Part shown: positions 13,001 through 61,389 of the stretch, piece after piece
How positions within the stretch are numbered: the stretch's first letter is position 1
Layout: each line of letters starts with the position of its first letter
Source of the DNA: an uncultured Myxococcaceae bacterium
GTDB taxonomy: Bacteria; Myxococcota_A; Polyangia; Polyangiales; Ga0077539
Direction of reading: 5' to 3'
DNA length: 64,000 bases
NCBI GenBank assembly: GCA_964447205.1
Contig: CAYUSB010000042.1
Location: 1,503 to 65,502 of the forward strand
Translations under genes and position numbers: made by a program
The notes under the pieces: model-generated
Told to the model about the DNA's origin: nothing
Seen by the model: only the letters and a program-made list of their open reading frames with translations
Database searches by the model: none

Positions 13001-14378
13001 CGTCACGGCCGCGTGGATCGTGCAGAGCCTCGTCGGCAGCTACGGGCCGATGTCGCACCCGGTGGGGGCCTGCGCCACGGCGGCGGTGTCGATCGAAGAC
13101 GCCGCGGACAAGGTGTTGGGGGGCAAGGCGGCCTTCGTGGTGGCGGGGGGTTTCGACGACTACGGCGAGGAGGGAGCCCTGGGCTTCGCCGACATGGCCG
13201 CGACCTGTGACAGCGACGACATGTTGGCCCGGTCGATCCCCCCGCGGGAGATGTCGCGCCCCAACGACCGCCGCCGCCGCGGCTTCGTCGAGGCCCAGGG
13301 AGGCGGGACGGTGCTCGTCGCCCGGGCCGACCTCGCGGTTCGGATGGGGCTCCCGGTGTATGCGGTGGTGGCCCTGGCCCGGTCGTACGGCGACGGGATC
13401 CATCGCAGCATCCCGGCTCCAGGCCCTGGGGTCATGGCCGTGGCCGCCGAACGACGGGCCCGCCCGGGCGAAACCACCGGCGAGGCCTTGTGCGACCTCG
13501 GGGCAAGGGCTGCGTCGTGGGAGGCCTTCGCGGCCGAGCTCCCGGCCCTCGCGGCGACGCTCGGAGAGGAGCGGGCCGAGGCCCTCGCCCGGAGCGAACG
13601 CCGACGTCTCTTCCACGACTTCGCCGACGGCGACCCGCGGGTGTCCCCGCTGCGACGGGCTCTGGCGACCTATGGGCTCGGCCCCGACGACGTGGCCGCG
13701 GCGTGGAAACACGACACCTCCACCGACGCCAACGACCCCAACGAGAACCGCGTCTACGACCGCATCTTCCGCTGGCTCGGCCGCTCCCCGGGGAACCCCC
13801 TCGTAGCCGTCTCGCAGAAGGCCCTGACGGGTCACTCCAAGGGCGGGGCTGCGGCGTGGCAGGTGGCGGGTCTGTGCCAGGCCTTGTCCGCGGGCATCCT
13901 GCCGGGCAACCCCAACCTCGACGACCCCGACCCCACGATGCGGGCGTTTGAGACGATGTGTTTCACCGACGCCCCGCTGGCCCTTGGGCCGGATGGATTC
14001 GAGGCGGGCATGGTGACCTCCCTGGGGTTTGGCCACGTGGGCGGGGTCGTGTGCCTCGTGCATCCGGACCGGGTTCTCGGGGCCCTCGACGACGGGGCCT
14101 TTGCCCGCTACGGGGAGGCCCGGGCGGCCCGGGAGCGTCAGCGCCTGCGCGACGAGCTGGCGGTGTACGAGGGGACGCGGCCTGCGGTTCGGATTCGGAC
14201 GGAGAAGGCGTTTGTGGTTCCGGCCGACCCGCAGTATGCGGGGCTCGATGCGGAGCAGGCGGTGCTGCTCGACGCGGCCTCGCGGCGCCTGACCCCGGGC
14301 GGACCCATCGTCGCGGGCGGGGTAGCCGCGGCCTTCCTTCCTCCTGAGGCCCCTGTGGCTTCACCGCCGGATTTCTGA
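4035..14378 (+). CDS. fas: Type I fatty acid synthase, single 3447-aa chain with fungal/CMN-bacterial domain order AT - ER (FMN TIM-barrel) - DH - MPT - ACP - KR - KS
   Basis: The order is read directly from the motifs. There is an N-terminal acyltransferase GHSQG, then an enoyl reductase block (FLPGMTPTT...GGGQVTE...GGKAGGHHSWEDL), a hot-dog dehydratase (PLHRDAHVAALAGFDRPIVHGQW), a second transferase GHSVGEYSA, an ACP (FGGNSSKRNQVMADLGAEF), a KR Rossmann segment (VTGASDRSIAIELVKLLLTGGARVVVTTS), and a KS with active-site Cys (HPVGACATAAVSIEDA). From memory it is collinear with M. tuberculosis/Corynebacterium FAS-I. A GGAG lies 7 nt upstream of the ATG. Confidence 0.9.
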   Translation: MRSSEVSPPLADRPHGPRDPAESRHYTARAAAPPLFAALRTHEARVAIVFGGQGAPWLPALRELHGAHLSVRALVRGATERLRASASDPRLGALATPARGFDLARWIDDPAAAPPDDVLSSSLVSQAGIFLTSVARSLAMAERGFDLDTLAARATAATGHSQGIMAALLFAEGHGPEALVRRAGEFASYFFWQGYRMQESFVRAAVAPAVRAAAEQAGIGDPTPMAAVAGMNHALLTEALGRFHAANPQLPPLDVSLDNGYARKVLSGPPPSLVAFARSLAAARTAEIADFARGRLGRRPIEFVWEFVAASAPFHSRYMDYGRRALPDDLAREGIRFDPGALGLPVLGNDGGDLRSFADGPSLLDALLRMQFVEPMRWPAVCAALRESHPAGITHVLDYGPGDAVARLTALNCRGFGVHVFPLATEAGRREVSLPVPELPRGVDYRRFAPTLRRTAAGEVVLDNAFRRFTGRAPIFLPGMTPTTTEAPLVAAAANAGFVSELAGGGQVTERHLRLRAKELSESLAPGAAYVVNLLYLDPYLWNLHWKGEGLVRRLRAEGHPIEGITVSAGVPDLAEAREIVEACRAAGIGLVSFKPGTTKQIQAVLEIARACPELTLGVQVEGGKAGGHHSWEDLRDLVRTSYHQVRALPNVVLSVGGGIRTEADAWEWLSGRWSERLGLAPMPVDAVFVGTLAMVAREACTSPSVKALLARTEGTEAWVAHGATRGGMTSGKSQLDADIHYVDNTAARVGKMLDEVAGDPAAVVARKDEIVAALARTAKPYFGALTEMTHAAVLRRAVDLMAIGRGTDYDDGPWPDPSYRQRVFDLAARFEETLCPAPGPSLLGGLDDLDDPGAFVARFVARYPEAERVTLSQSDADFFVHRVCARPGKPVNFVPALDGDVRRWYKSDALWQSHDDRYDADQVLVIPGPEAVQGITAVDEPIGAMLGRFVAYGVDQLLAAGHTPADPVDRTADAELDRAAAALGLSLGRDPDGITAEAPAGPAFQTPSEAAVGAWLDALDPVVLGPLARARGLLRGRSLGPNPLARMLRVEPGDRWTLLRDDTRGVTAVKVRRASGHAVECTLGRADNIGRCDVTLVHALPADRHGMAPVVRVSLAYERDLGHEARFPRDVTPAREAALGDFYRAAMVGEADRVPAGHAVRSRFTLDADFVREYALASGDASTAHLGGRGHAHCMPLNAAFSAAFAAIFRATFVPDVDWDPARLVHLTNEVRAVGRALHEGETVEVEARLTAWEPVKGGVRARVAATLRCDEAVRATVVSTFFVQEARGTYRFRDEDLTFALPPGDPARFDLLAEKPWLRVSEGAAIDPDLAHTVALHLETRTEGPRSVSTVTGTLRDPARRIVATIDHTEDQRDAAETEPARWFAHFAPISDPAVPLPQPSIPHVERAFAPWNLLEFARASRDANPLHRDAHVAALAGFDRPIVHGQWTAARAVAAAVTGFAATDGERVRAITVNFTDTVFPGDEVEFRARHTAMHDGDLVVEIEARALDGGDGRLALRGTVRIAAPRTAYVFPGQGVQATGMGMEGYARSPAARRVWDEADALCRDTLGFSLLTVVRDNPVEMRVGPEILRHDQGVLFLTQFTQVAMAVLAIAQVAELREAGCFQAEAMFCGHSVGEYSAIGAVTDALSLAAVVECVYQRGLTMQTFVPRDAQGRSPYRMAVVRPNLVGLTESALSALVAQIALDTGMLCEVVNLNIRGRQYSVVGHIPALDLLRARLAERASPGAKPAYLEVPGIDVPFHSAALRSGVAAFRTKLDAYMPPDLDLRALVGRYIPNLVARPFALTRDYLDAVAECTGSPVLADLQTRWNSAGYAPDDLGRTVFIEGLAYQFASPVRWIETQDIVLARDRSGVSRVIEIGLGAAPTQANMFRATLAADPSRLDPPAVYNLEADRKAVLSLHDPDAQEAPSAPRDAAPEAETPKSPAAAPVAPAAARGPISDAPLSVRDALATLLALKARIRVDEVRPEESIEVLFGGNSSKRNQVMADLGAEFAVAAIDGAHEMAFLALVEAVERATGGRYQAQGPYLRAQITAALKPYGLSLREALAAFTARGLPEGRSLALLNRVALWLRPGDSTRAGTLSPVPPPKPGDRGAAAQWLDAALARYAQDEGLALGGPAESSGSNAVDGAALEKLLARYFGVGGAFLETLRFAEAALGRDVWAELAVKDTPTADAERLPLFEAEHGETYEGAIRPAFSSDKAVVFAGAWAWSRREALGLYHRLRAGDTAGVTESVGRIARGADEATARTVVWLRDRAQRAGDEATGAVFAGLLDRIDPRAQPRAESAAVPLEPAVEVLSDGRLTDYERPRGTPSPLGLADELLAGHHARLRAHGHEPRPEVEAVYAEALRALAGGSVSFAGRTALVTGASDRSIAIELVKLLLTGGARVVVTTSRLSPERVRFYRRLFQAHGARGAELAVVPFNQGSRQDIQALVHWLVSTEKTVVGGTQRTVKEPWLIDLLVPFGAVGEEATLAEISDRSMATLRVLLYGVEALVSECARAFSRLHVRETRTHVILPLSPNHGQFGNDGLYGEAKAALETMLNRWGSEQAAWGRHTSVVGARIGWVRGTGLMNVNNAIAPGLEARAGVRTFSAAEMALGLGACCVDAVRDLAAEGPLVADLTGGMDRVRDLAGIARTLRAELMAQVSRARRLHGLRAEEDRALGRRPPAVRHVTPSPRLAGYFAFPALPSPARRASLAALRGLDLSRVVVIVGLGEIGPWGGSRPRWSMESTGELSVEACVELAWMTGRIRYERSRQHVGWIDAATREPIEGHTVKARYEEAITRDAGIRLVEPTDPGALDPRKLTVWADVALEQDFVFPVPGRADGEAFVAAAGDGARLIFDPERDGWFVVRRKGTVVKVARAARLNRYVAGQIPTAWDPVRYGIPKDLVEQVDRTTLFNLIATVEAFLSAGLEPEELYEYLHPADVGSTQGAGIGGMQKLRRLYLDHTLDRPRQGDALQETLINVTAAWIVQSLVGSYGPMSHPVGACATAAVSIEDAADKVLGGKAAFVVAGGFDDYGEEGALGFADMAATCDSDDMLARSIPPREMSRPNDRRRRGFVEAQGGGTVLVARADLAVRMGLPVYAVVALARSYGDGIHRSIPAPGPGVMAVAAERRARPGETTGEALCDLGARAASWEAFAAELPALAATLGEERAEALARSERRRLFHDFADGDPRVSPLRRALATYGLGPDDVAAAWKHDTSTDANDPNENRVYDRIFRWLGRSPGNPLVAVSQKALTGHSKGGAAAWQVAGLCQALSAGILPGNPNLDDPDPTMRAFETMCFTDAPLALGPDGFEAGMVTSLGFGHVGGVVCLVHPDRVLGALDDGAFARYGEARAARERQRLRDELAVYEGTRPAVRIRTEKAFVVPADPQYAGLDAEQAVLLDAASRRLTPGGPIVAGGVAAAFLPPEAPVASPPDF

Positions 14379-14384
14379 GCTGCC

Positions 14385-14786
14385 ATGATCGTTGGCATCG
14401 GCCTCGACACCGTCGACCGCGGGCGCTTCGAGCTCCTCCTGCACGAGCCTGGGAGCGCCTTCGCGGCCCGCACCTTCACCCCGGGCGAGCGCCACGCTGC
14501 CGCGGGGCGTCCGTCGGGCGATCCCGTGCGTCACCTCGCGGCCCGTTATGCTGCGAAGGAGGCGTGCGTGAAGGCCCTGTCGCAGTCGCTGGCTCCGGGG
14601 CCGCTGCCGGTGGCCCTGGCCGACCTCGCCGAGATCGAGGTGGTGTGCGACGACGACCACCGCCCGTCGCTGGCCCTGCACGGCCGGATGCGGGCCCTCG
14701 CGGAGCAGGCCGGGATCACGGCCCTGCACGTCTCGCTCAGCCACGACGGGCCCGTGGCCACGGCGATGGTCGTCGCGGAGCGCTGA
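14385..14786 (+). CDS. acpS: Holo-[acyl-carrier-protein] synthase (4'-phosphopantetheinyl transferase, AcpS type)
   Basis: 133 aa beginning MIVGIGLDTVDRGRFELLL and continuing ...YAAKEACVKAL, the AcpS family signature. It starts 7 bp after the fas stop, the same fas-acpS arrangement found in Corynebacteriales. Confidence 0.85.
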   Translation: MIVGIGLDTVDRGRFELLLHEPGSAFAARTFTPGERHAAAGRPSGDPVRHLAARYAAKEACVKALSQSLAPGPLPVALADLAEIEVVCDDDHRPSLALHGRMRALAEQAGITALHVSLSHDGPVATAMVVAER

Positions 14787-20073: not shown

Positions 20074-22050
20074 TCAGGGGTCGTCGACGAGGGCGTCGAG
20101 ACGTGCGCAGAGGGCCTTGTGTACGTGCCCCGCGATGCGGCCGTAGTGGCCCCGGAGCGCGGGGGCGATGCGCCGGGCGAAGGCCACGAAATCCGGGTGC
20201 CACTCCCGATCGAGGAGATAGCCGACGATGTCGATGTCGTCGTCCTCGGGCGTCACCTCGTCGCCCAGGGCGAGGTTCAACAGCGTGAGGAAGTCCGCGC
20301 GGTCGCGGTCATCCCATGGGGTCTTGGGGAAGAGGTCGAGCACAAAGGCGAGTCGGCCGTCGGCGGCGGCGAGGGCCTGCGGGCGCAGCGTACGGATGGC
20401 CTCCCACTCGGCCGCGGTGAGCACCGGCGCGGAGGCAGGGACCGCGGCAGCAGCCTCGGCGGCGCGGGTGGCCTGAATCAGGGCCTCGCCCTGCGCGAAG
20501 AAGTACCAGGGTAGGTCGCCGCTGCGATGCTGGATGGCCGCGACGGCGGTCTTCAACTCCAACGGCCGCGTGATGCGCCCCGCGACGAGGTCGGCCCGCA
20601 CGAGCTCCAAAAACCGCCCCGACAATTCTCGGGAGGACAGCACCACGGCGCGTAGCCCCGGGTCGGCGTAGAGGCGCTGGAGAAACATCGGCATCGGGCC
20701 ATCGCGGCGGGGCACATAGAGCCCCTCGATGCGCTGCTCCAGAGCCCAGGCCATCGCCGTCGTCGAGCGCCGTCGCGTCAGGATCCGATCGACGAGCGCG
20801 CCCCGGGCGCGGGCCGGGAGCAGGGCCGCAGCGCCGCGGTGGTCGAAGAACGCGACCAGCGAGGTCTCGTCTCCGTCGTCGCCGTCTTCGGTCCAGGCTT
20901 CGAGCATCCTCGCGCGAAACGCCTTCGGGAGCCGTTCGGTCCCGATGCACTTGAGGGACTCCTGCACCGCCGTCGACGCCGAGCCTGCGCCCAACTCGGT
21001 CACGAGGTCGACCCAAGGTCGCACCGACCGCCCGGCGGGCCACAGCGCGTCGAGCCCCGCGCCGTGAAGCAACGACCACAGTTGGAGCGAGGGGCGGTCC
21101 GGGTCCTCCTGCCGATGCGCCCAGCGCACGAGGCCGAGCACGCAGCGCGCCCGATGGGCCGCAGCGGTGCCCCGCACGGCGCGAAAGTATCCCTCGAGCG
21201 CGCGCGTAAACGTGTGGTCGAGTCCCCACCCCTCGACGAGCGCGAGCACGGTGTCGAGCGTGCCGGGGCGCGCCCCGAGCGCGAGGAGTGTGCTTGGGGC
21301 CCGCGGGTGAAGGTCGCCGGTGGCGTTGAGGACGGCCCGGGCGTGGTCGAGCAGCAGCCGGGTGGGCAACGCCGCAAGGGCCTCGGCGTAGTCGGTGTCG
21401 GTGGGCGGAGGAGGCTGGGCGTTGCCGAGGCTGCGCGGGGCAAAGGCGTCGCAGACGACCTTCACCGGTCCCCGGAGGCGCTTGAGCCCCGCAGGGCGCT
21501 GCCCGGCGAAAGGGTCGGCGGCGAACGCGCTCTGCCAGAAGGCCACGGCGTGTGTCTTCAGCAGGCGCTCGAGGGCGGTCTGTTTGACCCTGTCGTCGCC
21601 GTCTCGGGCCAGGTGGGTGAGCGCCGCGATGCCGACGGGTCTGTGCGTGGGGGCGGCCGCGGCGACGGCGTAGCGGATGTCGCCCAAGGTGTGCTCGCGG
21701 AGCTGCGTGACGAGCGCGTCGCACGCGTCGGGGGCGCGCAACAACCAGTGCTGGAGCGCCGCGGAGAGGTACCGTGGGTCAGTCTGAAAGAGGCCGTCCG
21801 CCTCGCCCAGGCGTTCGAGCGCCTTGAGGGCGCGCAGGACCCGATCGGCGGCGTCGGGGGTGGGCGTGATGCCGAGGAGCGCGATCTCCATGCGGAGGAG
21901 CGCCATGGCGAGCCAGCAGTCGGCGCGACGCTCGCGGTGGAGGGTGGAGTGGGCCCGCGGTGCGGCCTCGTAGGCTTCGAGGTAGGCGTAGGCCCAATCG
22001 AAGGCCGACGCGAGGTCGCGGAGGGTCGGGGCGAAGGGGCGGGCGATCAT
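20074..22050 (-). CDS. Large hypothetical alpha-helical protein (~658 aa), last gene of the ArsA-pair operon
   Basis: Start MIARPFAPTLRDLASAFDW... at ATG 22050..22048. This ATG overlaps the TGA stop of the upstream gene (ATGA), which supports that start over the longer ORF 20074..23193, whose extension is Arg/Pro-rich. Leu/Ala/Trp-rich, with no recognised family. Confidence 0.55.
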   Translation of the reverse strand: MIARPFAPTLRDLASAFDWAYAYLEAYEAAPRAHSTLHRERRADCWLAMALLRMEIALLGITPTPDAADRVLRALKALERLGEADGLFQTDPRYLSAALQHWLLRAPDACDALVTQLREHTLGDIRYAVAAAAPTHRPVGIAALTHLARDGDDRVKQTALERLLKTHAVAFWQSAFAADPFAGQRPAGLKRLRGPVKVVCDAFAPRSLGNAQPPPPTDTDYAEALAALPTRLLLDHARAVLNATGDLHPRAPSTLLALGARPGTLDTVLALVEGWGLDHTFTRALEGYFRAVRGTAAAHRARCVLGLVRWAHRQEDPDRPSLQLWSLLHGAGLDALWPAGRSVRPWVDLVTELGAGSASTAVQESLKCIGTERLPKAFRARMLEAWTEDGDDGDETSLVAFFDHRGAAALLPARARGALVDRILTRRRSTTAMAWALEQRIEGLYVPRRDGPMPMFLQRLYADPGLRAVVLSSRELSGRFLELVRADLVAGRITRPLELKTAVAAIQHRSGDLPWYFFAQGEALIQATRAAEAAAAVPASAPVLTAAEWEAIRTLRPQALAAADGRLAFVLDLFPKTPWDDRDRADFLTLLNLALGDEVTPEDDDIDIVGYLLDREWHPDFVAFARRIAPALRGHYGRIAGHVHKALCARLDALVDDP

Positions 22051-24086
22051 GCGTCGTCCCAGTCGTCGTCGAGGGTGTGGGAGGGCGCAGCAGGAGACGC
22101 CCCCGCGGCGTGCGTCGGGCCCAGCTTCGCCCGGAGCGCCGCGAGGAGGTCGGCGTCGGCGTCGAAGTCCTCGGTCTGGGTGATGACACGCGCGACGAAG
22201 GGCGCGAGGGAGGGGCGCCAGGCCTTGAGCAGGGCGTGCGCGATCATCGGGGTGTCGAAGTCTTCGTGAAAGTCCGGGTCGTCGCAGCGCGCGAGCACGG
22301 CGGCGAAGAAGGTGTGGTCGTCGTCGGTCCAGTGTTCGGGTTGGGAGGGCAGCCAGCCGAGCGCCCAACTCGATCGGTGCAGCATCTCGGCGCCGAGGGC
22401 CCAGCCCTGGGCGCGCACCCGACGCACGGCCTCCCACTCGTCGGGCGTGAGCGGTCCGTCTTCGGTGAAGGGGATCCTCGCCATCTCGCGCGCGGCGAAC
22501 GCCGCGGCTTTGGGGTGCCGGATGTGCCAGTATTCTTCGCCGAAGGTGTCGCCTCCGTGGACCAGGGCCAGGGCCTGCACGAGGGCGCGGACGCAGGACG
22601 TGTCGCACAGGTCGCCGTCCACCAACGCGCGGCGCAGGGGACGGGTAAACCACTTGACGAGTTCGGTGCGGGACCAGGCCAGGGCGCGGAGCCTCGGGTC
22701 TTGGAGGAGCGCCAGGGCCAGCGCGTCGCGCGGGCCGTCGGCCTCGTCGTAGAGGGCGTCGAGCGTGGCGTTGAGGGCCCAGGCCCGGGTGTCGTCGGCG
22801 TCGCAATGCAGCGCGCGGACGCAGAGGGCGCGGGCCTCGTCGCGGGGCATCGCCAGCACGAAGTGGCCGAGGTGGCTGTTGTACCCGGCGAAGGCCAGCG
22901 GTTCGGGCTCGCCACGGAGCCAGGCCGCCACCAGGGCGTCGCGACGGGGTCGGGGAAGGTCGGCAGCCTTCATCGCGCCGCCAAGGTCGGCGGCGAAACG
23001 ACGGGTCTCGGGACGCGCCGCCAAGGCCAGGACCGCGTCGATCCAGCGGTCGGGGTTGTCCTTCCACGGCGCGCTCTTGGTGATGAGGTAGCTGCTCGGG
23101 CAGGCGAGGGGCTCCTCGGGGAGGGCTCCATGGACCTCGGCGAACGCGTGTACGAGCGCGAACAACGCGTCGGCCCGGCGCGGGTCGGGCCACGTAGCCA
23201 GCGCCTCGAGCTCCTGCACCAACGACGAGCGCCAGAGGTCGTGCTCACGCCAGGACACCCAACACGCCGCGAGGATCGTCGGGGCCAGGTCGTGTTCGAG
23301 GCAGTGTCGAAAGAGGGCCCTGGCCTCGGGGCGGGCCACCCCTGCACCCTTGAGCGCCGTGGTCGCGAGGTCGATGCGCGTCGCGGTCGACAGGGCGTCG
23401 AGGTCGGGTTGCAGGTCAGGCAGCCCTCGGGGCGCGCCGGGCGAGGGGGTGACGGTGGTGGTCAGCGCTGCCACGATGCGGAGCGCCGCGGCGCGCTCGG
23501 CCTCGTCGGGGAGGGTATTGGGATCGCGGCCGAAGAGCCCCTGCCAGGGCTGCGGCAGCGCGTCGGGCGGCAACCGTGCCTGGGCGGCCTGACGCACCCA
23601 CGGGATGGGGTCGTTGCACAGTCCGGCCAGGATGGCGCGACCCTCCGGCGTCTCCACGGGGATGGCCGCGACGACGTTGAAACGATGCCGAGGCAGCGGG
23701 TGGCTGACGTAGTGCTGCACAAGCGGGTGTTGCAACGACAGCCCCCGGCCGAGCAGCGTCGACAGCGTGCACGCCCCGAGCACGGCATCGTCCTCGCTCT
23801 CCCGGCCATAGCTGGCGGCCTCGGTGAAGGCGTCGACCACCGCGAGAAGGTCAGGTTGATCAAGCGCCTGACCGTGCTGCGCGAGGTAGGCCCCATGCGC
23901 GCGCAACGTCGCCATGGCCAACGGCAGCCGCGGCTCGAACACGCGCTGTGGGAGGCTGTGAACGACAAGGCGTCTCGCCGCAGGGGCGAACGCGAGAACG
24001 ACGTCCCATGGCGCGAGGGGCAGCGCGGTTGCACTCACGCCACGGAGCCAACCACAAAATCCCAGGCGCCCACAACAGCGAGGCAC
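22047..24086 (-). CDS. Large hypothetical alpha-helical protein (~679 aa), start uncertain (GTG 24086 or a later ATG near 23915)
   Basis: Natural composition throughout (…LAMATLRAHGAYLAQHGQALDQPDLLAVVDAFTEAASYG…HLGHFVLAMPRDEARALCVRALHCDADDTRAW…), ending DDDWDDA* with its stop overlapping the next start. It lies immediately downstream of the ArsA-like genes. Confidence 0.5.
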   Translation of the reverse strand: MPRCCGRLGFCGWLRGVSATALPLAPWDVVLAFAPAARRLVVHSLPQRVFEPRLPLAMATLRAHGAYLAQHGQALDQPDLLAVVDAFTEAASYGRESEDDAVLGACTLSTLLGRGLSLQHPLVQHYVSHPLPRHRFNVVAAIPVETPEGRAILAGLCNDPIPWVRQAAQARLPPDALPQPWQGLFGRDPNTLPDEAERAAALRIVAALTTTVTPSPGAPRGLPDLQPDLDALSTATRIDLATTALKGAGVARPEARALFRHCLEHDLAPTILAACWVSWREHDLWRSSLVQELEALATWPDPRRADALFALVHAFAEVHGALPEEPLACPSSYLITKSAPWKDNPDRWIDAVLALAARPETRRFAADLGGAMKAADLPRPRRDALVAAWLRGEPEPLAFAGYNSHLGHFVLAMPRDEARALCVRALHCDADDTRAWALNATLDALYDEADGPRDALALALLQDPRLRALAWSRTELVKWFTRPLRRALVDGDLCDTSCVRALVQALALVHGGDTFGEEYWHIRHPKAAAFAAREMARIPFTEDGPLTPDEWEAVRRVRAQGWALGAEMLHRSSWALGWLPSQPEHWTDDDHTFFAAVLARCDDPDFHEDFDTPMIAHALLKAWRPSLAPFVARVITQTEDFDADADLLAALRAKLGPTHAAGASPAAPSHTLDDDWDDA

Positions 24087-24119
24087 TCGGACGTCGCGGG
24101 GCCCCGCCCATCACTGCCA

Positions 24120-25217
24120 TCACCCGTCGGGCAGGAGAGCCGCCAGGTGCGGATCGAGCTCCGCCGACAGGGCCGCCACGATGGCCTCCGGGGCCGTCGC
24201 CTCCACAAACGGCAGCCGCACGATCGCCGCCCGCGACAAACTCCGCCCGAGCGCGACCGTCAGCGTGTCGGCCGCCCGGGCTCTCCCCACCCGCTCCTGC
24301 TCCAACACATCGAGGACCTCCTTGATGGACGGGGACACCCCCGGCCCCACCCGCAAGGCCCGCGCCCACGGAGCCGGGTGCGTATCCGCGCGATTCAAAA
24401 CTACCGCCCGCGGTCTCCGCCCGAGCTGCTCCAGGCGGGCCGCGAGGAAGAGCACGTCGTCGCGGGCCGCCTCGGTCGGAGCCGCCACCAGGGCGTAGGC
24501 CACCCGCTCGCCCAACAGAAGCTCCGAGGCCCGGCGCGTGAGCGAGACAAACCCCTCCCGCACCAGGGACAGGTCGCCAAACAGGGCCGCCGTGTCGCGC
24601 ACGAGGTTGGGGCCCGTGACCCGGGCCAGGAGCTGCTCGGCACGGTCGGTTCCCCAGGAGAGGAGGCCTGAGGAGGGGGCGGGCTCGCCGCTCGACCGCT
24701 GGGCCATCCCGGCGATCCACGAGACCGTACGGCCCCCGAGGAGGGCCGCGAGCCGGGCGGGGTAGGTCACGAAGTCGATGGCGTGCCGCGACGGGGCCGT
24801 GTCGATCACGATCACGTCGAAGTCGCCGTCGGTGGCGGCCCGGGCTACGAGGTTCATGGCCACGAGCTCGTGAACACCCGCGGCGGCGTCGGCGAGGCCG
24901 ATGTAGAGCTTGTTGGCCAGGACCCGGTCGCGGGCCGCAGGCTCGGCGGCGAAGAGGTGATCGAGGAAGGTTCGCATCGAGCGCCGGGGATCGGGCATCA
25001 GGGCCGAGAGCCTCCCCTTCCCAGCCGGCAACACCACGGGGGTCACCACGTCGGTGATCGGAACCCCCATGGCCCCCGCCAGCCTCCGGGCCGGGTCGAT
25101 CGTCACGATAAGGGTACGGTGCCCGCGCGCCGCAAGGGCCAGAGCCAGGGCCGCCGAGGTCGTGGTCTTGCCGACCCCTCCGCCCCCCGCGCACACGATC
25201 ACCCGCGGGTCGCTCAC
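24120..25217 (-). CDS. ArsA/Get3-family anion-transporting-type ATPase (P-loop CAGGGGVGKTT), second of a pair
   Basis: GTG start 25217 with a GTGA overlap onto the upstream stop; VSDPRVIVCAGGGGVGKTTTSAALALALAARGHRTLIVTIDPA...DVIVIDTAP. The long upstream extension in the track ORF (24120..25682) is Gly-rich low complexity and I rejected it. Confidence 0.75.
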   Translation of the reverse strand: MSDPRVIVCAGGGGVGKTTTSAALALALAARGHRTLIVTIDPARRLAGAMGVPITDVVTPVVLPAGKGRLSALMPDPRRSMRTFLDHLFAAEPAARDRVLANKLYIGLADAAAGVHELVAMNLVARAATDGDFDVIVIDTAPSRHAIDFVTYPARLAALLGGRTVSWIAGMAQRSSGEPAPSSGLLSWGTDRAEQLLARVTGPNLVRDTAALFGDLSLVREGFVSLTRRASELLLGERVAYALVAAPTEAARDDVLFLAARLEQLGRRPRAVVLNRADTHPAPWARALRVGPGVSPSIKEVLDVLEQERVGRARAADTLTVALGRSLSRAAIVRLPFVEATAPEAIVAALSAELDPHLAALLPDG

Positions 25218-26107
25218 GCCGCCCCCTCCGCCCGCAGCCACCGGGCCACATCCCGGGCCGTCGGGTCGACCGGGGCCAACGGAACCCGCCACACCGCATG
25301 CGGCCCCCGCGCAAACACCTCCATCGCCGCCGCAGCCCCCGCGCTCGCCGCCTCGCGGGCCTCCATGACCCCCACCAGGGCCCCCGCAGGCCCCGCCAGG
25401 GCTCCCCCCGCTGCCACCAGGGCCCTCGCCGCCTCCAAGCCCTCCCGGGCCAACGGAAGCGGAACCCGATTGACCACCACCCGGGCCACCTCCAGCCCCG
25501 GGTCGCGGGCGACGGTCTCGCAGAGTTCCAGGGTCTCTTCGAGCACGAGGCGTTCGGGCAGGGTCACCACCACGAGGGAGGCGCAGCCCGGGGCCACCAG
25601 CTCGCGGGCCACCCGGTCGCAGAGGTCGTACATGGGCCCCGACCCGAGAAACTCCCGGCCCTGCTTCGCCGTCCGCAGCCACGCCACCGCGTGCCCCGTA
25701 GCCGGCATGTCCACCACCACCCGAACCCCCGGGCGCTCGGCCACCACCTGCCGCACCGACTCCAGCATGGCGAGCTCCCGCACGGCCGGAGCCGCCCGGA
25801 TGAGGGGCCGCATCGCGAAGTTTCCCAGCACGATCTTCGCCAGCATGGCCGACCCGAACAAGGGCGTGGCCCCCCGCTGGATGGCCTCCTCGGGCGCGAT
25901 GACCAGATGTTCCACCCCGGGATGGGCCGCCCCGAGGGCCCTGCGCCCCGAGGCCCCGTCGCCAAACTCCACGAGCACCGAACGCCCCCGGGTCTCGGCC
26001 TCCAGGGTGGCCAGGGCCGCGGCCACGGTGGTCTTCCCGACGCCCCCTTTGCCCATCACGAGCACGGCGGGGGCGAGGCTCCGCGGGGGTACACGCGGGG
26101 TCGTCAC
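25214..26107 (-). CDS. ArsA/Get3-family ATPase, first of a pair (P-loop GKGGVGKTT)
   Basis: MTTPRVPPRSLAPAVLVMGKGGVGKTTVAAALA...VVVDMPATGH. GTG start 26107, overlapping the stop of the upstream gene (GTGA). The arrangement as two separate ArsA-like half-ATPases resembles the Rv3679/Rv3680 pair of M. tuberculosis, recalled from memory. Confidence 0.75.
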   Translation of the reverse strand: MTTPRVPPRSLAPAVLVMGKGGVGKTTVAAALATLEAETRGRSVLVEFGDGASGRRALGAAHPGVEHLVIAPEEAIQRGATPLFGSAMLAKIVLGNFAMRPLIRAAPAVRELAMLESVRQVVAERPGVRVVVDMPATGHAVAWLRTAKQGREFLGSGPMYDLCDRVARELVAPGCASLVVVTLPERLVLEETLELCETVARDPGLEVARVVVNRVPLPLAREGLEAARALVAAGGALAGPAGALVGVMEAREAASAGAAAAMEVFARGPHAVWRVPLAPVDPTARDVARWLRAEGAA

Positions 26108-27183
26108 GCGTCGGGCCTCTCGGCCATGGCCTCCATGACCTCGTGCATCATCAGGACATAGGCCGCCCGTACAAAGCCCACATACCGCGGCGAGGAAAGA
26201 CCCGACGACCGCACGAGGGACTCGATCCCTCGGGTGGTCTGGTTCCAGGCGGAGGTGACGTCGGCGAGGGTCCAGTGGCCCGTGAGGACCGGGGTGGTGC
26301 GCTCGGAGCGGGCGTCGGCCTCGGCATCAAACCAGTCGTCCATCACCTGCACGAAGTACGACACGTCGTACATCCACGCCCGGGCTCCCTCGCCCGCGTA
26401 CCGGGCCACCGGGAAGAGCAGGCCGTCGATGGTCCCCTCGACCCCGGCCATACGATGCCCCAGGCCCGTCGGGTCGGGCTCGCCCCGCATGGCCCGAACC
26501 TCCGCCCGGATCCACAAGCTCACCCGCTCCATGGCCCGCACAAAAGCCTCTCGGTCGGACGGGTCGAGACACTCGGACATGGCTACGGCGAGGGCCCGGG
26601 TGAGGGCGAGAGGGGGGCTGTCGGGGGGGGAGGTTCCGGCGATGACGGCCTCGAGGCGGGGGCCGCGCAGGGCGGGGGGGTCGTCCATGCAGTGGTCGAG
26701 GGTGTGGTCGACCACGACGATGAAGGCCGCCACCAGGGCGATGCTGCGCTGCTGCTGGGGGTAGGCGAAGCGCCCGAGGAGCTGCATGGCCCCGCGTCCC
26801 AAGAGCCCGAGGGCCGTCGGAGGGAGCGGCAGGAGGTTGCCCGCCCCGGTGACCACCCGCACGAGGGGCGGGCGACGCGGGGCGCAGAGCAGGGCCGTGT
26901 ACGGGGCGGAGGCGTACAGATCGCAGGCCCCGATGCGGAGCTTGTCGGCGAAGGGGGTTCCGCGCAGGGCGGGCCAGTGGGCGTCGATGAGAGGGTCGAC
27001 GTGCAGGTCGAAGTGGCGCCGGGCGGTGGCTCGGATACCCGCTGCGAGGTGTCGTACGGAGGGGTCGGGGGTTCCCAGGAGAGCCCGCACCGCGGCCACG
27101 CGCTCGGGGCGCGGAGGGAGCGAGAGAGCGGCCTCTCGGCGCGCGCTGGGACGAGACCCGGACACCGCGCCGTTGAACCCCAT
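26104..27183 (-). CDS. Hypothetical protein (359 aa), first gene of the ArsA-pair operon
   Basis: MGFNGAVSGSRPSARREAALSLPPRPERVAAV...VVVDHTLDHCMDDPPALRG...MDDWFDAEADARSE. Weak Asp-rich motifs faintly recall isoprenoid-synthase metal-binding motifs but are degenerate. I make no family call. Confidence 0.5.
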   Translation of the reverse strand: MGFNGAVSGSRPSARREAALSLPPRPERVAAVRALLGTPDPSVRHLAAGIRATARRHFDLHVDPLIDAHWPALRGTPFADKLRIGACDLYASAPYTALLCAPRRPPLVRVVTGAGNLLPLPPTALGLLGRGAMQLLGRFAYPQQQRSIALVAAFIVVVDHTLDHCMDDPPALRGPRLEAVIAGTSPPDSPPLALTRALAVAMSECLDPSDREAFVRAMERVSLWIRAEVRAMRGEPDPTGLGHRMAGVEGTIDGLLFPVARYAGEGARAWMYDVSYFVQVMDDWFDAEADARSERTTPVLTGHWTLADVTSAWNQTTRGIESLVRSSGLSSPRYVGFVRAAYVLMMHEVMEAMAERPDA

Positions 27184-27258: not shown

Positions 27259-27708
27259 ATGACCTCCCCCTCCCCCACCACCGCCGATGCGGTGCTTGAG
27301 CATCTCTTCACCCACGCCAACCCCGACTCAGGGTCGCCCGCCCCGGCCCACACCGCCTGGGTGGTCTTCGCGCACGGCACGGTGTTCTACACCTTCCCCG
27401 ACGCCGAGCTGCCCGTGGACAGCGGGCGCGAGGCCCTCGTGGCCGCAGCCCTCAAGGCCTTCGAGGCCCTCGGCCCCGTGAGGGTGGGCACCCCCTCGGC
27501 GGACTTTCATCCGGGGCATCTGGCGACATGGTTTCCCGAGGCCCCCATCTACCTGGTGAACTACGATCAACCCAACATCGCCTCGGTCTTCTTCGCCGAG
27601 GGCGAGAGCCCCCTTCAGGTCGGCCTCGCCGCACGAAGCCTCCGTCAGCAAGACTACGAGACCCGCACCATCGTGGCCGTCCGCGACTTCCACGGCCGCC
27701 GGGTTTAG
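27259..27708 (+). CDS. Hypothetical protein (~150 aa), 15 bp upstream of the molybdopterin oxidoreductase gene
   Basis: MTSPSPTTADAVLEHLFTHANPDSG...PIYLVNYDQPNIASVFFAEGESPL with natural composition. It is likely co-transcribed with 27724..29979. Confidence 0.45.
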   Translation: MTSPSPTTADAVLEHLFTHANPDSGSPAPAHTAWVVFAHGTVFYTFPDAELPVDSGREALVAAALKAFEALGPVRVGTPSADFHPGHLATWFPEAPIYLVNYDQPNIASVFFAEGESPLQVGLAARSLRQQDYETRTIVAVRDFHGRRV

Positions 27709-27723
27709 TCCACCCTTGCGGGC

Positions 27724-29979
27724 GTGATGCCCCCTCCCGCCTCGACCGAAGCCGACACGCCCTGGCGCTCGACCGCGTGTGTCCTGTGCAGCATCAACTG
27801 CGGCATCGAGGTGCGCGTAGCCGAACGCGGCCTCGTCAAGATCCGCGGCGACCGCAAACACCCCGCCTCCCAGGGATACACCTGCGAGAAGGCTTTGCGC
27901 CTCGACCACTACCAGCGCGGCCCCCACCGCCTCGACACCCCCCTGCGCCGCCGCCCCGACGGCACCCACGAGGCCATCGACTGGGACACCGCCCTCGCCG
28001 AGATCGCCGCCCGCCTCGGGGCCATTCGCGACGCCCACGGAGGGGCCTCGATCTTCTATTACGGCGGCGGAGGCCAGGCCAACCACCTCGGCGGGGGGTA
28101 CGGGGCGGCCACCCGGGTGGCCCTCGGGTCGGTCTACACCTCCAACGCGTTGGCCCAGGAGAAGACCGGGGAGTTCTGGGTCGACGGGCAGCTCTTCGGA
28201 CGGCCCCGGTGCCACACCTCGGGCGACTTCGAACACGCCGAGGTGGCCGTCTTCGTCGGCAAAAACCCCTGGCACAGCCACGGGTTTCCGCGGGCCCGGG
28301 TGGTCTTGAAGGAGCTCGCCGCCGACCCCGCCCGCTGCCTCGTCGTGATCGACCCGCGCCGCACCGAGACCGCGGCCATGGCCGACCATCACCTCCAGGT
28401 GATCCCCGGAACCGACGCCTGGTGCCTCGCGGCCCTCGTCGCCGTGATCGTGCAGGAAGACCTCGCCGCCCACGCGTGGATCGCTGAGCACACCCGCGGC
28501 TTCGACGACGTGGCCGCGCACTTCGGGGCCGTCGACGTGCCCGCCTTCTGCGCCGTAGCCGGGGTGGCTGAAGCCGAAGTGCGGGCCGTGGCCCGACGCA
28601 TCGCCCGGGCCGCGAGCGTGTCGATCTTCGAAGACCTCGGGATTCAACAGGCTCCCAACAGCACCCTGTGCTCGTACCTGGAGAAGCTGGTCTACCTCCT
28701 CACGGGCCACTTCGCCCAACGCGGGGGCATGAACATCCACACCCGTCTCGCGCGCCTCAGCGGCGGAGGCGGAGGCGGGGGCGACCGACGGTCTCCCGTG
28801 ACGGGCCAACGCATCATCACGGGGCTCATCCCCGCGGCGGCCATTCCTGACGAGGTTCTGACCGATCATCCGCGGCGATTTCGGGCCATGATCGTCGAGA
28901 GCGCCAACCCCGCCCACTCTCTGCCCGACTCCGTGCGGATGCGCGAGGCCCTCGACGCCCTGGAGTGCCTCGTGGTGATCGACGTGGCCCTCACCGAGAC
29001 CGCCCGCCGGGCCCACTACGTGCTCCCCGCCCCGTCGCAGTACGAGAAGTGGGAGGCGGCCTTCTTCACCCTGGAGTTTCCACGAAACACCTTCCAGCTC
29101 CGGGCCCCCGTGATCGCCCCGCTCCCCGGAACCCTGCCCGAACCCGAGATCCACCGCCGCCTCGCCCGGGCCCTTGGGGCCTACACCGACGCCGACCTCG
29201 TCCCCCTGCACGAGGCCGCGGCCCTGGGGCGCGAGGCCTTCACGATGGCCTTCCTCGGGACCCTCTCCGCGCGGCCCGAGCTCACGCCCTACGCGGCCCT
29301 GCTGCTGTACGAGACCCTCGGCCCGACCCTCGGCCCCGGGCGCGAGGCCACCGCGGCCGTGTGGGGGCTCGCCCAGACCTGCTTCATGGCCTATCCCGAG
29401 AGCGTTCAGCGGGCCGGGCACGAGAGCGGCGACGCCCTCTTCGAGGCCATCCTCGCCCATCCCGAGGGGGTGACCTTTACGGTCGACCCGTACGAGGAGA
29501 CCTGGGCCCGGATGGACACGGCCGATGGGCGGGTTCGGCTGGCGGTTGCGGAGCTGTTGGAGGCCTTCGCGGCCCTGCCGTCGGCCCCGCCTGCGCGCGA
29601 CCCGGCCTTCCCCTTCGTGCTCTCCGCGGGCGAGCGCCGGACGTCCACGGCCAACACCATCTTCCGCGACCCGGGATGGCGCACGAAGGACCGTCACGGG
29701 GCCCTGCGCTTGAGCCCCGACGACGCCCGCGACCTTGGGGTGACGGATGGAGACCGGGTTCGGGTGAGCACCCGGCGGGGGAGCGCCGAGGCCGTGGTGG
29801 AGGTCACCCCCATGATGCGGGCCGGGCACGTCTCGTTGCCCAATGGGACGGGGCTCGATGGAGCCGACGGGGTTGTTGGGGTAGCTCCCAACGAGCTCAC
29901 CTCCAGCGCCGACCGCGACCCCATCGCGGGGACGCCCTGGCACAAACACGTCCCGGCCCGGGTCGAACGCGTGGCCTGA
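27724..29979 (+). CDS. Molybdopterin-dependent oxidoreductase (MopB superfamily; formate-dehydrogenase/assimilatory-nitrate-reductase-like), 751 aa with an N-terminal [4Fe-4S] Cys cluster
   Basis: CVLCSINCGIEVRV...YTCEKA gives the CxxCxxxC...C pattern. The molybdopterin-binding regions are present (IFYYGGGGQANHLGG, VVIDPRRTETAAMADHHLQVIPGTD), and there is a C-terminal MopB_CT-like beta-barrel (DGDRVRVSTRRGSAEAVVEVTPMMRAGHVSLPNG). I saw no in-frame TGA. Confidence 0.8.
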   Translation: MMPPPASTEADTPWRSTACVLCSINCGIEVRVAERGLVKIRGDRKHPASQGYTCEKALRLDHYQRGPHRLDTPLRRRPDGTHEAIDWDTALAEIAARLGAIRDAHGGASIFYYGGGGQANHLGGGYGAATRVALGSVYTSNALAQEKTGEFWVDGQLFGRPRCHTSGDFEHAEVAVFVGKNPWHSHGFPRARVVLKELAADPARCLVVIDPRRTETAAMADHHLQVIPGTDAWCLAALVAVIVQEDLAAHAWIAEHTRGFDDVAAHFGAVDVPAFCAVAGVAEAEVRAVARRIARAASVSIFEDLGIQQAPNSTLCSYLEKLVYLLTGHFAQRGGMNIHTRLARLSGGGGGGGDRRSPVTGQRIITGLIPAAAIPDEVLTDHPRRFRAMIVESANPAHSLPDSVRMREALDALECLVVIDVALTETARRAHYVLPAPSQYEKWEAAFFTLEFPRNTFQLRAPVIAPLPGTLPEPEIHRRLARALGAYTDADLVPLHEAAALGREAFTMAFLGTLSARPELTPYAALLLYETLGPTLGPGREATAAVWGLAQTCFMAYPESVQRAGHESGDALFEAILAHPEGVTFTVDPYEETWARMDTADGRVRLAVAELLEAFAALPSAPPARDPAFPFVLSAGERRTSTANTIFRDPGWRTKDRHGALRLSPDDARDLGVTDGDRVRVSTRRGSAEAVVEVTPMMRAGHVSLPNGTGLDGADGVVGVAPNELTSSADRDPIAGTPWHKHVPARVERVA

Positions 29980-30751: not shown

Positions 30752-33250
30752 TTACGCCTGCTCGGGTTCGAGGGCCCGCAGGGCGCTTGCCTCGGTGGGC
30801 AGCAGGCGCGCGAGGGAGGTCCCGTGCAGGAGCCGGGCGAGCACGGCCGCGACGCTCTCGCCGCCCAGAATGGCCAGGGGGGCCATGCTCTCGGCCACCT
30901 TGGCGGTCAGGGCCCGGTCGCCGAAGGCCTGCAGGGCCGCCACGAGGTCGGGCGAAACCGCCTGGGCCTTGTCGACCACGGCCCGAACCTCCGCCTGAAG
31001 CTCGGCCAGACGCTGGGCCTGGGCCTGCGCTTCCAGCCCCGCCTCGATCTCTCCGCGGGCCTTGACCCGCTGAATCTCGGCGGCGTGCACGAGGTCGAGG
31101 AGGCTCTGCTCGGCCGCGCGGACGGCCTTACGTTCGGCCTCCAGGGCGGCCTCGGCCTTGACCTCGGCGAGGCGCAAGACGTGGGTGTGGGCGTGCTCGT
31201 TCTGGCGCAGGGTGAGGTCGGCGAGGCGCGTCCCGGCCTGGAGCTCGGCCACCGTACGGCGGGTGGCCTCGGTCTCGCGGGTGAGCTCAAGCTTGCGGCG
31301 CTCGGCGGCCAGGGACAGGGCCTGCCGCACCGTGGCGTGCTGGGCCTCGAGCAGCATCTGGGCGATGTCGCCGTCCCCGAGGGTCACGTCGAGGACCTCC
31401 ACGTCGTAAACGTGCATCCCGTTCTCGTCGAAGAGGCGGCCGGGGCGTTTGCCCGCGTCGTCCTGCTTGCCCAGGATGACCTCGCGCAGGATGGCCGCGC
31501 TCTGCTCGTAGAAGGTCTCCACCCCCTGCTGCTTCACCGCGTGACGGATCAGCGACCGCAGGTGATCGGTAAGAAACTTGACGTAGTTCTCGACGTTGAA
31601 CCACAGGCCCGGGTCGCCCACGAAATTGACCCGGTACGACAGGAGGAGCCGCACCCGGCACAGGTCCCGGGTCTCGGCCTCGACCACGTCGGAGACCTTG
31701 TTGTTGAGCACCCGGAGGTAGGCCGTGCGGAAGAGCTCGACGTCCGTCTTGGGGGTTCCCGTGGAGAGTTCGAGGGCCTGGAGGGTCTCGTCGTAGGCGA
31801 GGAGGTGGGTGTGGGGCCCGACGATCACCCGCCGCTCGCCGCTGCGGTTGACGACCATCACCGCGTAGCCAGTCCACACCCCGATGGCCACGGCCCCGTC
31901 GTAGCGGGTGTCGAGCACGAGGGTGCGGGGTTGGGTGAAGGTCTGCCTGCGGCTGAAGTCATCGCCCGCGAAGGTCGCCGTGGGGGCCGGAGCCGACGCC
32001 GCCTGGGGGGCCCCCATGGGCAGGTCGGCCGCACGCCCCCGGGCCTTCTGAACCTCCTTGTCGGCGAGGTGCTCGCCCCCGCCCTTGCGCTTGAGCTCCT
32101 GGAGGCCTTGATTGACCGCCAGGGCCTCGGCGTTGCCCGGAAACCACAGGCCGACGGTGCGGGCGTCGAGGACCCTCCGCACGATGACCTCCCGCCGCGG
32201 ATCGGGCAGGAAGATCGAGGGCCCCCGCTGGAGCCGGATCTGCCCGCTGTTGCGGTCGAGGACGTAGCGCCCCTCGCCCGCGGGGATGGCCAGGGCGTAG
32301 TGGATCTCCTGGTCGCCGTACTTGACGATCGCGTGCTCGGGGCGCGGGAAGTAGATCATCTGGTCGCGGCCCGTGAGGAAGAGCTCGTCGCCGACCTTGT
32401 AGGCCCGGCCGTCCTCCTCGTAGGGGGCGATGACCTTGACGAAGATCCCGGAGTTCTCGTTGAGCTCCAGGGCCCGAAACTTCCGCCCCGACTCGCGCGC
32501 GATGACCGTCTCGGTGGGCCGCGGGAAGACCACCGCGGGGCCGCGCACGAAGCGCTTGTTGCCGTCTTCGTCGAGCAGGATGCAGTACTCGAGGCGCTCC
32601 AGGGTGATGGCCTCGCGCACGAACCGCTTCTGCTCGTCGGGGACCACCTCGATGCCCGTCGGGGGGATGTGGAAGCTCACCTCCGTGCCCCGGATGACGA
32701 GTTGGGCCCCCATGGTGAGGTCCTCGAGGCGCACCACGGGCTCGGTCCCCTCGGGCTCGCCCTCCTCCGCGGGGCGGGCGCGAAACACGGCGTCTTTCCA
32801 GTTCTTGCGGGCGGCCTCTTCGTCGTAGACGCGCACGACGAGGTACTGGTTGGAGCGGAGGTGGTGGCCCTGGATGACCCGCACCATCTGCCCGGGCCAC
32901 AGGGCGAAGCTGACGGGCCCCGGGGTGTTGACCTTGCGGCCCACCTCGAGGTCGGGGAGGTTGTTGAGGGCCCCGGTGCGGGGGTGGGATCCGTCCTTGG
33001 CTGGGTTCTTCAGGACGAGGTACCAACCCTCGGGGGCGACCGAGAGGGTCTGGGTGGCCTGCTCGAGCGAGCACCGATCGAACCGTTTGGTCTGGTCGTT
33101 GAAGACCACCGGGCGATCGGTGTTGGCCAGGCTGGTCTTGTGGGGCCCGACGTACACGTTGATGTTCCCCTTGGTCTCGTCCGAGATGAAGGCGAACTCA
33201 TTGGGGGCCAGGACCAGGTCGCGGGCCCGGTCACGATCGTTGTCTGCCAT
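30752..33250 (-). CDS. Major vault protein (MVP) homologue, 832 aa: N-terminal MVP repeats, SPFH/band-7-like shoulder, C-terminal cap-helix coiled coil
   Basis: The N-terminus (LAPNEFAFISDETKGNINVYVGPHKTSLANTDRPVVF) matches the first MVP repeat of human MVP as I recall it ([35 protein letters not shown]). Repeated beta-rich modules follow. A long C-terminal coiled coil (…RRKLELTRETEATRRTVAELQ…AQAQRLAELQAEVRAVVDK…) and the tail AVSPDLVAALQAF…LAILGGESVAAVLARLL resemble the MVP cap-helix and cap-ring segments. Confidence 0.8.
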   Translation of the reverse strand: MADNDRDRARDLVLAPNEFAFISDETKGNINVYVGPHKTSLANTDRPVVFNDQTKRFDRCSLEQATQTLSVAPEGWYLVLKNPAKDGSHPRTGALNNLPDLEVGRKVNTPGPVSFALWPGQMVRVIQGHHLRSNQYLVVRVYDEEAARKNWKDAVFRARPAEEGEPEGTEPVVRLEDLTMGAQLVIRGTEVSFHIPPTGIEVVPDEQKRFVREAITLERLEYCILLDEDGNKRFVRGPAVVFPRPTETVIARESGRKFRALELNENSGIFVKVIAPYEEDGRAYKVGDELFLTGRDQMIYFPRPEHAIVKYGDQEIHYALAIPAGEGRYVLDRNSGQIRLQRGPSIFLPDPRREVIVRRVLDARTVGLWFPGNAEALAVNQGLQELKRKGGGEHLADKEVQKARGRAADLPMGAPQAASAPAPTATFAGDDFSRRQTFTQPRTLVLDTRYDGAVAIGVWTGYAVMVVNRSGERRVIVGPHTHLLAYDETLQALELSTGTPKTDVELFRTAYLRVLNNKVSDVVEAETRDLCRVRLLLSYRVNFVGDPGLWFNVENYVKFLTDHLRSLIRHAVKQQGVETFYEQSAAILREVILGKQDDAGKRPGRLFDENGMHVYDVEVLDVTLGDGDIAQMLLEAQHATVRQALSLAAERRKLELTRETEATRRTVAELQAGTRLADLTLRQNEHAHTHVLRLAEVKAEAALEAERKAVRAAEQSLLDLVHAAEIQRVKARGEIEAGLEAQAQAQRLAELQAEVRAVVDKAQAVSPDLVAALQAFGDRALTAKVAESMAPLAILGGESVAAVLARLLHGTSLARLLPTEASALRALEPEQA

Positions 33251-57131: not shown

Positions 57132-59609
<2,478 letters not shown>

Positions 59610-59685
59610 CGCGGGGGAGGATACCCGATTCGCGCGCAGGGGTGGCGACGGAGGGGCCCCCGAGGATACACTCCCCTGTCGCTCC

Positions 59686-61389
<1,704 letters not shown>

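Follow-up and report, generated by a model that had tools for sequence, protein, structure and literature searches.

A BagAB-like ATPase pair beside a terpenoid-synthase-fold protein, and a putative Lon accessory pair downstream, in an uncultured myxobacterium

Do five closely packed genes on one strand encode one machine, or more than one? The question is raised by positions 20,074 to 27,183 of a 64,000-nucleotide (nt) stretch of DNA from an uncultured Myxococcaceae bacterium (contig CAYUSB010000042.1, assembly GCA_964447205.1), a stretch that we refer to, at its full length, as the window. A first-pass annotation, made from the sequence, had taken the five minus-strand genes found there, here called A to E, as a single dedicated machine built around a split ArsA/Get3-like ATPase pair (B and C). 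We find that the conserved unit is the trio A-B-C, which occurs in uncultured Polyangia-type Myxococcota, and that the placement of D-E beside it is specific to this lineage. The five-gene machine is unsupported: no D/E homologue lies within 8 kb of A in any of the 76 species examined, and a check across Myxococcota fails to find the five-gene set conserved, with only A being kept with the ATPase pair. The first-pass annotation had itself named such a lack of conservation as grounds for refutation. We consider it probable that the locus holds two independent modules on one strand, namely the conserved trio and, placed downstream of it, a rare, putatively accessory pair that lacks a Lon gene.

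Gene layout and conservation of the trio

The window has a GC content of 70–77%, in a genome of 72–74% GC, so that most of its long open reading frames (ORFs) are spurious, and coding frames were therefore judged by codon-position GC. All five of the ORFs A–E show the coding pattern, with a GC content of 0.87–0.91 at third codon positions (GC3) and about 0.53–0.55 at second codon positions (GC2), and the ORFs that compete with them on other frames lack it. Gene A (26104..27183, minus strand, as are all five), the first of the trio, encodes a 359-amino-acid (aa) protein that its model places in an unannotated family of class I terpenoid (isoprenoid) synthase fold; gene B (25214..26107) encodes a 297-aa BagA-like protein, a deviant Walker A ATPase of the Get3/ArsA family; gene C (24120..25217) encodes a 365-aa BagB-like ATPase; gene D (22047..24038, in an ORF that extends to 24086; GC3 0.88) encodes a 663-aa protein, a predicted all-helical, HEAT-like solenoid of a Lon-associated family; and gene E (20074..22050) encodes a 658-aa paralogue of D. 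Public gene calls on the source contig (ENA ERZ27284381, k139_400128, 74.5 kb) match A, B, C, and E. The start of D was set by the N-terminus that it shares with homologues P0003 and P0130, which begins at the GTG codon at 24038 and gives 663 aa; the ORF start at 24086 would give 679 aa, and the public call at 23942, which gives 631 aa, is probably 32 codons short.

The five minus-strand genes and the overlaps reported in the first-pass annotation are real, as indicated by the coding GC pattern and by the junction sequences (GTGA at A/B, GTGA at B/C, and ATGA at D/E). The further claim that such overlaps couple all five genes is correct within A-B-C and within D-E, but not between the two units: C and D have no overlap, and with the D start revised to 24038 they are separated by 81 nt (24039..24119), which would be the boundary between the two modules. 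A scan of this gap detected no sigma-70-like promoter and no intrinsic terminator, a result that is little informative in a high-GC genome, and co-transcription of D-E with A-B-C is neither supported nor excluded by it.

Conservation of the trio is extensive. Protein A has more than 219 close homologues, and four long contigs each carry A-B-C and then genes unrelated to it. Among GTDB species genomes, A was identified in 76 species, all represented by metagenome-assembled genomes (MAGs), with no cultured isolate; the carriers are Myxococcota labelled Polyangiales, Polyangiaceae, Byssovorax, or Sandaracinaceae, with one contig excepted. Six-frame ORFs of the 76 A loci were searched with A–E and with a profile of the D/E family, revealing 51 loci with the order A-B-C, 5 loci with the order B-C-A, and 3 loci cut by a contig end that have A beside B or C, for 59 loci in which A is beside the ATPase pair. 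A stands alone, with at least 2.2 kb on both flanks, in 6 of the remaining loci, and 11 are uninformative by this flank rule; three of these 11 (L044, L081, and L082) have several kb of downstream sequence without B/C, bringing the A-alone loci to nine. The D/E profile has no match within 8 kb of A at any of the 76 loci, the closest relative (A 87% identical) included. The excepted contig, L078, carries a fragment 75% identical to A at positions 1–603; it is binned as "Cyanobacteria bacterium" and is probably a mis-binned myxobacterial contig.

The junctions within the trio are conserved to different degrees. The 4-nt overlap of B and C recurs in 55 of 56 related loci, indicating that in the window it is not a local accident; A and B overlap in 19 of the 51 A-B-C loci and elsewhere lie at most 60 nt apart in all but one. 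That A, B, and C stay together even where their order has changed is good evidence that they are functionally linked.

Clustering of the neighbours at 80 loci showed that only A (in 76 loci) and B/C (in 59) are shared across the set; one other group exceeded 14 loci, and its members, short antisense ORFs in 25 loci, look spurious. A further conserved partner (a membrane receptor, for instance, or the triose-phosphate isomerase encoded upstream in L008) was considered and rejected, as no such gene recurs over the 80 loci. The neighbours of A at the A-alone loci (QueC, TPR proteins, peptidases, and glycogen synthase) are unrelated to one another. In a divergent lineage that has A without B/C, QueC directly follows A and is itself followed by a large TPR protein (L077, 9086–9766; L079, 9040–9765), and L080 (9030–9758) has ORFs that match those of L077 and L079 in size and position.

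Protein A and the ATPase pair

Protein A has no Pfam or NCBIfam match at E values up to 1 except a chance-level match to HEAT_2, and a profile search of PDB sequences with A gives only matches to solanesyl diphosphate synthase at E of about 1. The structural model of A has a class I alpha-helical terpenoid synthase fold, with weak Foldseek matches (best E 3e-3), and on this model A belongs to the class I terpenoid (isoprenoid) synthase fold, as an unannotated family. The model positions motif 1, D159-H-x-x-D163-H164 (DHxxDH; 26692..26709, minus strand), at the C-terminal end of the long helix 142–165, where it would take the place of the first Asp-rich DDxxD motif of class I synthases. Motif 2, Q279-x-x-D282-D283-x-x-D286-x-x-x-D290...R295-x-T297-P298 (26290..26349, minus strand), lies 123 residues past motif 1, at the end of helix 265–285; its residues fit either another DDxxD or the 1-5-9 spacing of an NSE/DTE-type triad. 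Both motifs would sit at the sites where class I synthases hold their metal cluster, as a predicted metal-binding set that is complete though atypical.

The Asp-rich motifs, which the first-pass annotation had called degenerate, are real and near-invariant across 70 species. Specifically, D159, H160, D163, and H164 show at most one exception, and Q279, D282, D283, D286, D290, R295, T297, and P298 are invariant; both motifs are kept down to 42% identity, A-alone loci included. Residue C87 is also invariant. The constraint on the motifs argues for a working active site, and A is probably a working metal-dependent enzyme with the hydrophobic active-site cavity typical of the fold. Neither the sequence nor the model of A has a C-terminal transmembrane helix, indicating that A itself is not a tail-anchored client.

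Judged from profile matches and motifs, B and C join the BagAB-like branch of the Get3/ArsA family as new members, B being the more divergent of the two. B matches Pfam ArsA_ATPase (6e-14) and, as its top curated match, NCBIfam BagA (1.1e-12; 48 bits, below the 400-bit cutoff), and among solved structures it matches the second half of E. coli ArsA (4.9e-10) and Rv3679 (6bs3_A; 1.9e-9). C matches NCBIfam BagB (1.3e-48; 166 bits, below the 521-bit cutoff), ArsA (1e-13), and, over residues 4–304, Rv3680 (PDB 6bs3_B; 1.8e-32). The models and the 6bs3 matches agree with the first-pass description of a split pair resembling Rv3679/Rv3680; because the scores fall under the equivalog cutoffs, B and C are to be regarded as BagA/BagB-like homologues and not as equivalogs or orthologues by the NCBI criterion.

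B has the P-loop GKGGVGKT (26030–26053, minus strand) and the switch II motif DMPATGH, and C has the P-loop GGGGVGKT (25164–25187, minus strand), in which the signature lysine is missing, as in Rv3680, and the motifs IDPARRL and DTAPSRH. Both P-loops, and the DPA-type switch I and the switch II of both proteins, are invariant in 53 species, so that both subunits look nucleotide-competent. The central region of C, at about residues 160–200, is poorly conserved. The single Cys of C, residue 9, lies in the P-loop strand; there is no CxxC motif in B or C, and neither protein showed a conserved cluster of Cys or His. A PADLOC scan for anti-phage defence gave weak P-loop cross-matches for B (1.6e-3) and C (2e-4 to 3e-4) and none for A, D, or E, and an anti-phage role was rejected.

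These features suggest how the trio might work. A would act, in a metal-dependent manner, on a diphosphate-bearing or hydrophobic substrate, and the B/C heterodimer would couple ATP binding and hydrolysis, through closing and opening of the dimer, to a partner-specific task. By analogy with the Get3 client and with metalloid capture by ArsA, this task could be to hold and hand on the hydrophobic product or substrate of A; alternatively, B/C could assemble, regulate, or metallate A, an option that is weakened by the lack of a conserved Cys or His cluster in B/C.

The D/E family and Lon

D and E are paralogues (26% identity over 535 aa, E = 2e-14), a relationship that the first-pass annotation did not contain. 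Its placement of A, D, and E outside curated families stands, none of the three having a significant match in Pfam or NCBIfam. In particular, neither D nor E has a significant Pfam HEAT match; about 130 of 658 residues of the predicted D/E solenoid align to HEAT structures, with no full-length structural match. The family comprises about 218 representative clusters, all unannotated, and includes single chains of about 1250–1360 aa in which one D/E domain directly follows another. Only four homologues of D came from a word-indexed search of 5.8 billion proteins, and A-B-C is absent from their loci, as from all of the seven D/E loci retrieved in total outside the window; a metagenome scan for further E-type loci found none. 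The closest homologue of D, 77% identical, is at locus L005, where the D-E pair stands alone in an unrelated neighbourhood; the others belong to D-Lon-E triads (L001–L004).

At other loci, in six arrangements, members of the family are associated with a gene for a Lon protease or fused to part of one. D-LonA-E triads with overlapping junctions are present at L001–L003, L004, and L010, the D-Lon-E order with overlap at the Lon/E junction only is present at L089, and the triads span four lineages; at L088, 266 nt separate a distant D/E member from an 834-aa Lon gene downstream of it. At L011 (5510–9925; Minicystis sp. MAG, GCA_047601355.1), Lon and D/E are fused in one 1471-aa protein, in which residues 1–552 comprise the Lon N-domain, AAA+ module, and lid, and residues 826–1380 comprise a D/E domain (E = 1e-45); a D/E-family solenoid replaces the Lon protease domain, and a free D/E gene follows the fusion. 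The partner Lons are LonA-like, scoring 488–572 bits on TIGR00763, slightly below its cutoff, and the Lon of L002 (10720–13041), the sequence of which was read directly, keeps PKDGPSAG, the motif of the catalytic serine, and GGVRAK, that of the lysine.

The gene fusion and the recurrent flanking of Lon suggest that D and E work as a pair with a dedicated Lon, as its accessory or adaptor subunits. On gene context, an accessory scaffold or adaptor for a LonA-type protease is the most likely function of D/E; homology to known Lon adaptors was not found. There is no Lon gene elsewhere in the window among the ORFs scanned, and D and E overlap directly (ATGA) both in the window and at L005, pointing to a clean loss of Lon in a common ancestor. 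D/E of the window would work with a Lon encoded elsewhere or serve another role. The D-LonA-E triad of L010 (ERZ27284381, k139_762220) and the Lon-less pair of the window (k139_400128) come from the same metagenome assembly.

Competing explanations, neighbouring genes and known systems

A machine in which all five products are stoichiometric partners, and in which the Get3-like pair serves or chaperones the large helical proteins, would be consistent with the shared strand, with the overlaps inside A-B-C and D-E, with a gap of 81 nt that has no terminator-like site, and with the repetition of the five-gene order A–E on a second, independently assembled contig from the same organism. We nevertheless judge it very unlikely, given that D/E is near A in none of the 76 species, that A-B-C is missing from seven of the seven other D/E loci, and that the close relative with the 77% identical D has D-E in an unrelated neighbourhood. 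A role of B/C as ArsA, powering the efflux of arsenite or antimonite, is extremely improbable. The Pfam ArsA_ATPase matches and the second half of E. coli ArsA as the best solved structure for B point that way, but TIGR04291 scores B at 42.3 bits and C at 50.9 bits against a cutoff of 650, the genes are split and not fused, and no ars-type neighbour recurs in the 80 loci. Moreover, the positions aligned to the metalloid-binding residues C113 and C422 of ArsA (1f48) are not Cys, the lone Cys of C being at residue 9. The lack of arsenic context noted at first pass is borne out, as domains of ArsB, ACR3, ArsC, ArsD, and ArsR were absent from the window ORFs scanned, a set that leaves out seven shorter candidate ORFs.

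Two further explanations concern the role of B/C. P-loop NTPases that serve metalloenzymes include CooC and Mrp/ApbC, and ArsA handles a metalloid; B/C could similarly be maturation ATPases that insert or exchange metal in A. B/C falls in the same broad P-loop group, with weak matches of MrpORP, ApbC, and NifH type, and the two invariant His of DHxxDH, together with the invariant C87, hint at a non-Mg site in A. This explanation is unlikely, however, as B/C has no conserved Cys/His cluster, with one Cys in C and no CxxC, and as nine loci have A without B/C. Alternatively, B/C could act generally, in the manner of Get3, to chaperone or target proteins that are tail-anchored or prone to aggregate, with A as a mere neighbour. 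Membership of the Get3/ArsA family is clear, and reviews propose holdase activity or binding of hydrophobic sequences by bacterial Get3 homologues (PMC6593721). We regard a general factor as quite improbable, since the adjacency of A is found in 59 loci and survives gene-order change, since the Get3/TRC40 family model TIGR00345 scores the two proteins at 75.4 and 41.4 bits against a cutoff of 135 with CxxC lacking, and since A has no C-terminal transmembrane helix.

The reading with two independent modules is the one we prefer, and a more specific form of it, which we put forward only tentatively, is that A, or its hydrophobic product, serves as client to a BagAB-type split Get3-like ATPase dedicated to it, and that D/E represents an undescribed family of LonA accessory pairs. 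Several points weigh against these interpretations. D-E lies just 81 nt past C, on the same strand and with no detectable terminator, and may be co-transcribed with the trio and locally recruited to it. The nine loci with A but no B/C nearby indicate that A can work alone, and the absence of adjacent B/C there weakens the option that B/C hands on the product or substrate of A. The His that occupies the place of a canonical Asp in motif 1 suggests that isoprenoid diphosphates may not be the substrate of A. The link between D/E and Lon is drawn from seven loci, and the functions and interactions given here for A–E are all predictions from sequences and models.

If the proposal is correct, A or its product would be the first defined partner for the bacterial BagAB-type ATPase class. 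The presence of A beside the BagAB-like pair in 59 species-level loci makes it a concrete, testable candidate; its predicted fold is one that handles hydrophobic diphosphate substrates, to which A would add an unannotated branch with a His motif. The D/E family, in turn, suggests that Lon has accessory proteins of a kind not yet described. More generally, same-strand overlapping genes in one genome are no proof of an operon-level machine.

The remainder of the window contains several further genes of note. At 4035–14378 (plus strand) lies the gene for a type I fatty acid synthase of 3447 aa in a single chain, of the kind known from fungi and actinobacteria, with a Fas1-AflB-like helical domain (1e-91) and SAT, MaoC dehydratase, acyltransferase, Fas_alpha_ACP, and ketosynthase domains, and an AcpS-type phosphopantetheinyl transferase is encoded directly after it (14385–14786, plus strand); to our knowledge, a single-chain synthase of that kind is unusual in a myxobacterium. 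Near the trio, a molybdopterin oxidoreductase with Fe4S4, molybdopterin, and dinucleotide-binding domains (27724–29979, plus strand) is transcribed away from A, and a 149-aa ORF taken from the public gene call (27259–27708) lies ahead of it; in other species the trio is not accompanied by this oxidoreductase. An 832-aa major-vault-protein (MVP)-like gene lies at 30752–33250 (minus strand; MVP shoulder 3e-28, Vault_3, Band_7), and a 904-aa fusion of Ser/Thr protein kinase, globin, and alpha/beta hydrolase domains is encoded at 36627–39341 (plus strand). Tandem Ser/Thr kinases with C-terminal RCC1-repeat propellers are encoded at 54668–57112 and 57132–59759 (both minus strand), and more kinases at 43890–45188 and 59590–61389.

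A limited literature search found no description of a link between a BagAB-type ATPase and a terpenoid-synthase-fold protein, and none of the Lon-associated D/E family. The relationship of D/E to HEAT scaffolds of AAA+ machines, such as Rpn1/Rpn2 of the proteasome, and to the A subunit of PP2A is one of partial alignment, Pfam registering no significant HEAT match. Relative to class I terpenoid and trans-prenyl synthases, such as epi-isozizaene synthase (3kb9) and solanesyl diphosphate synthase (9jqs), A has an identity of only 6–14%, has DHxxDH in place of DDxxD and DDxxDxxxD in place of the canonical NSE/DTE motif, and has no Pfam match.

B/C shares a superfamily with eukaryotic and archaeal Get3/TRC40 but lacks the CxxC zinc motif of the dimer interface and consists of two different single-domain chains, not a homodimer or a tandem fusion. 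It also differs from the Get3 homologues of Myxococcales, which are double-domain proteins with CxxC (PMC6593721), whereas B and C are single-domain chains that lack it. In ArsA, the two halves are fused in one chain, encoded inside an ars operon, and carry the metalloid-binding residues C113, C172, and C422; B and C are separate genes. 

The myxobacterial pair differs from mycobacterial BagAB in its host, in its linked terpenoid-synthase-fold gene, and in scores far below the equivalog cutoffs; we know of no link to a terpenoid-synthase-fold gene at the mycobacterial BagAB locus. Two reports still call the BagAB client or substrate unknown (PMC10597346, 2023; PMC12216072, 2025), and the former cites stress and drug-tolerance phenotypes of BagAB, reported only for mycobacteria, that include protection from glycerol and nitric oxide stress (PMC10597346). 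The likeness to BagA/BagB of M. tuberculosis (Rv3679/Rv3680, 6bs3) consists of two adjacent, separately encoded ATPases of the Get3/ArsA family with no arsenic context. In particular, C resembles Rv3680 in its lysine-less GxGGVGKT P-loop, in its DTxPSR(H/N)A motif, and in an alignment that extends over about 300 residues.

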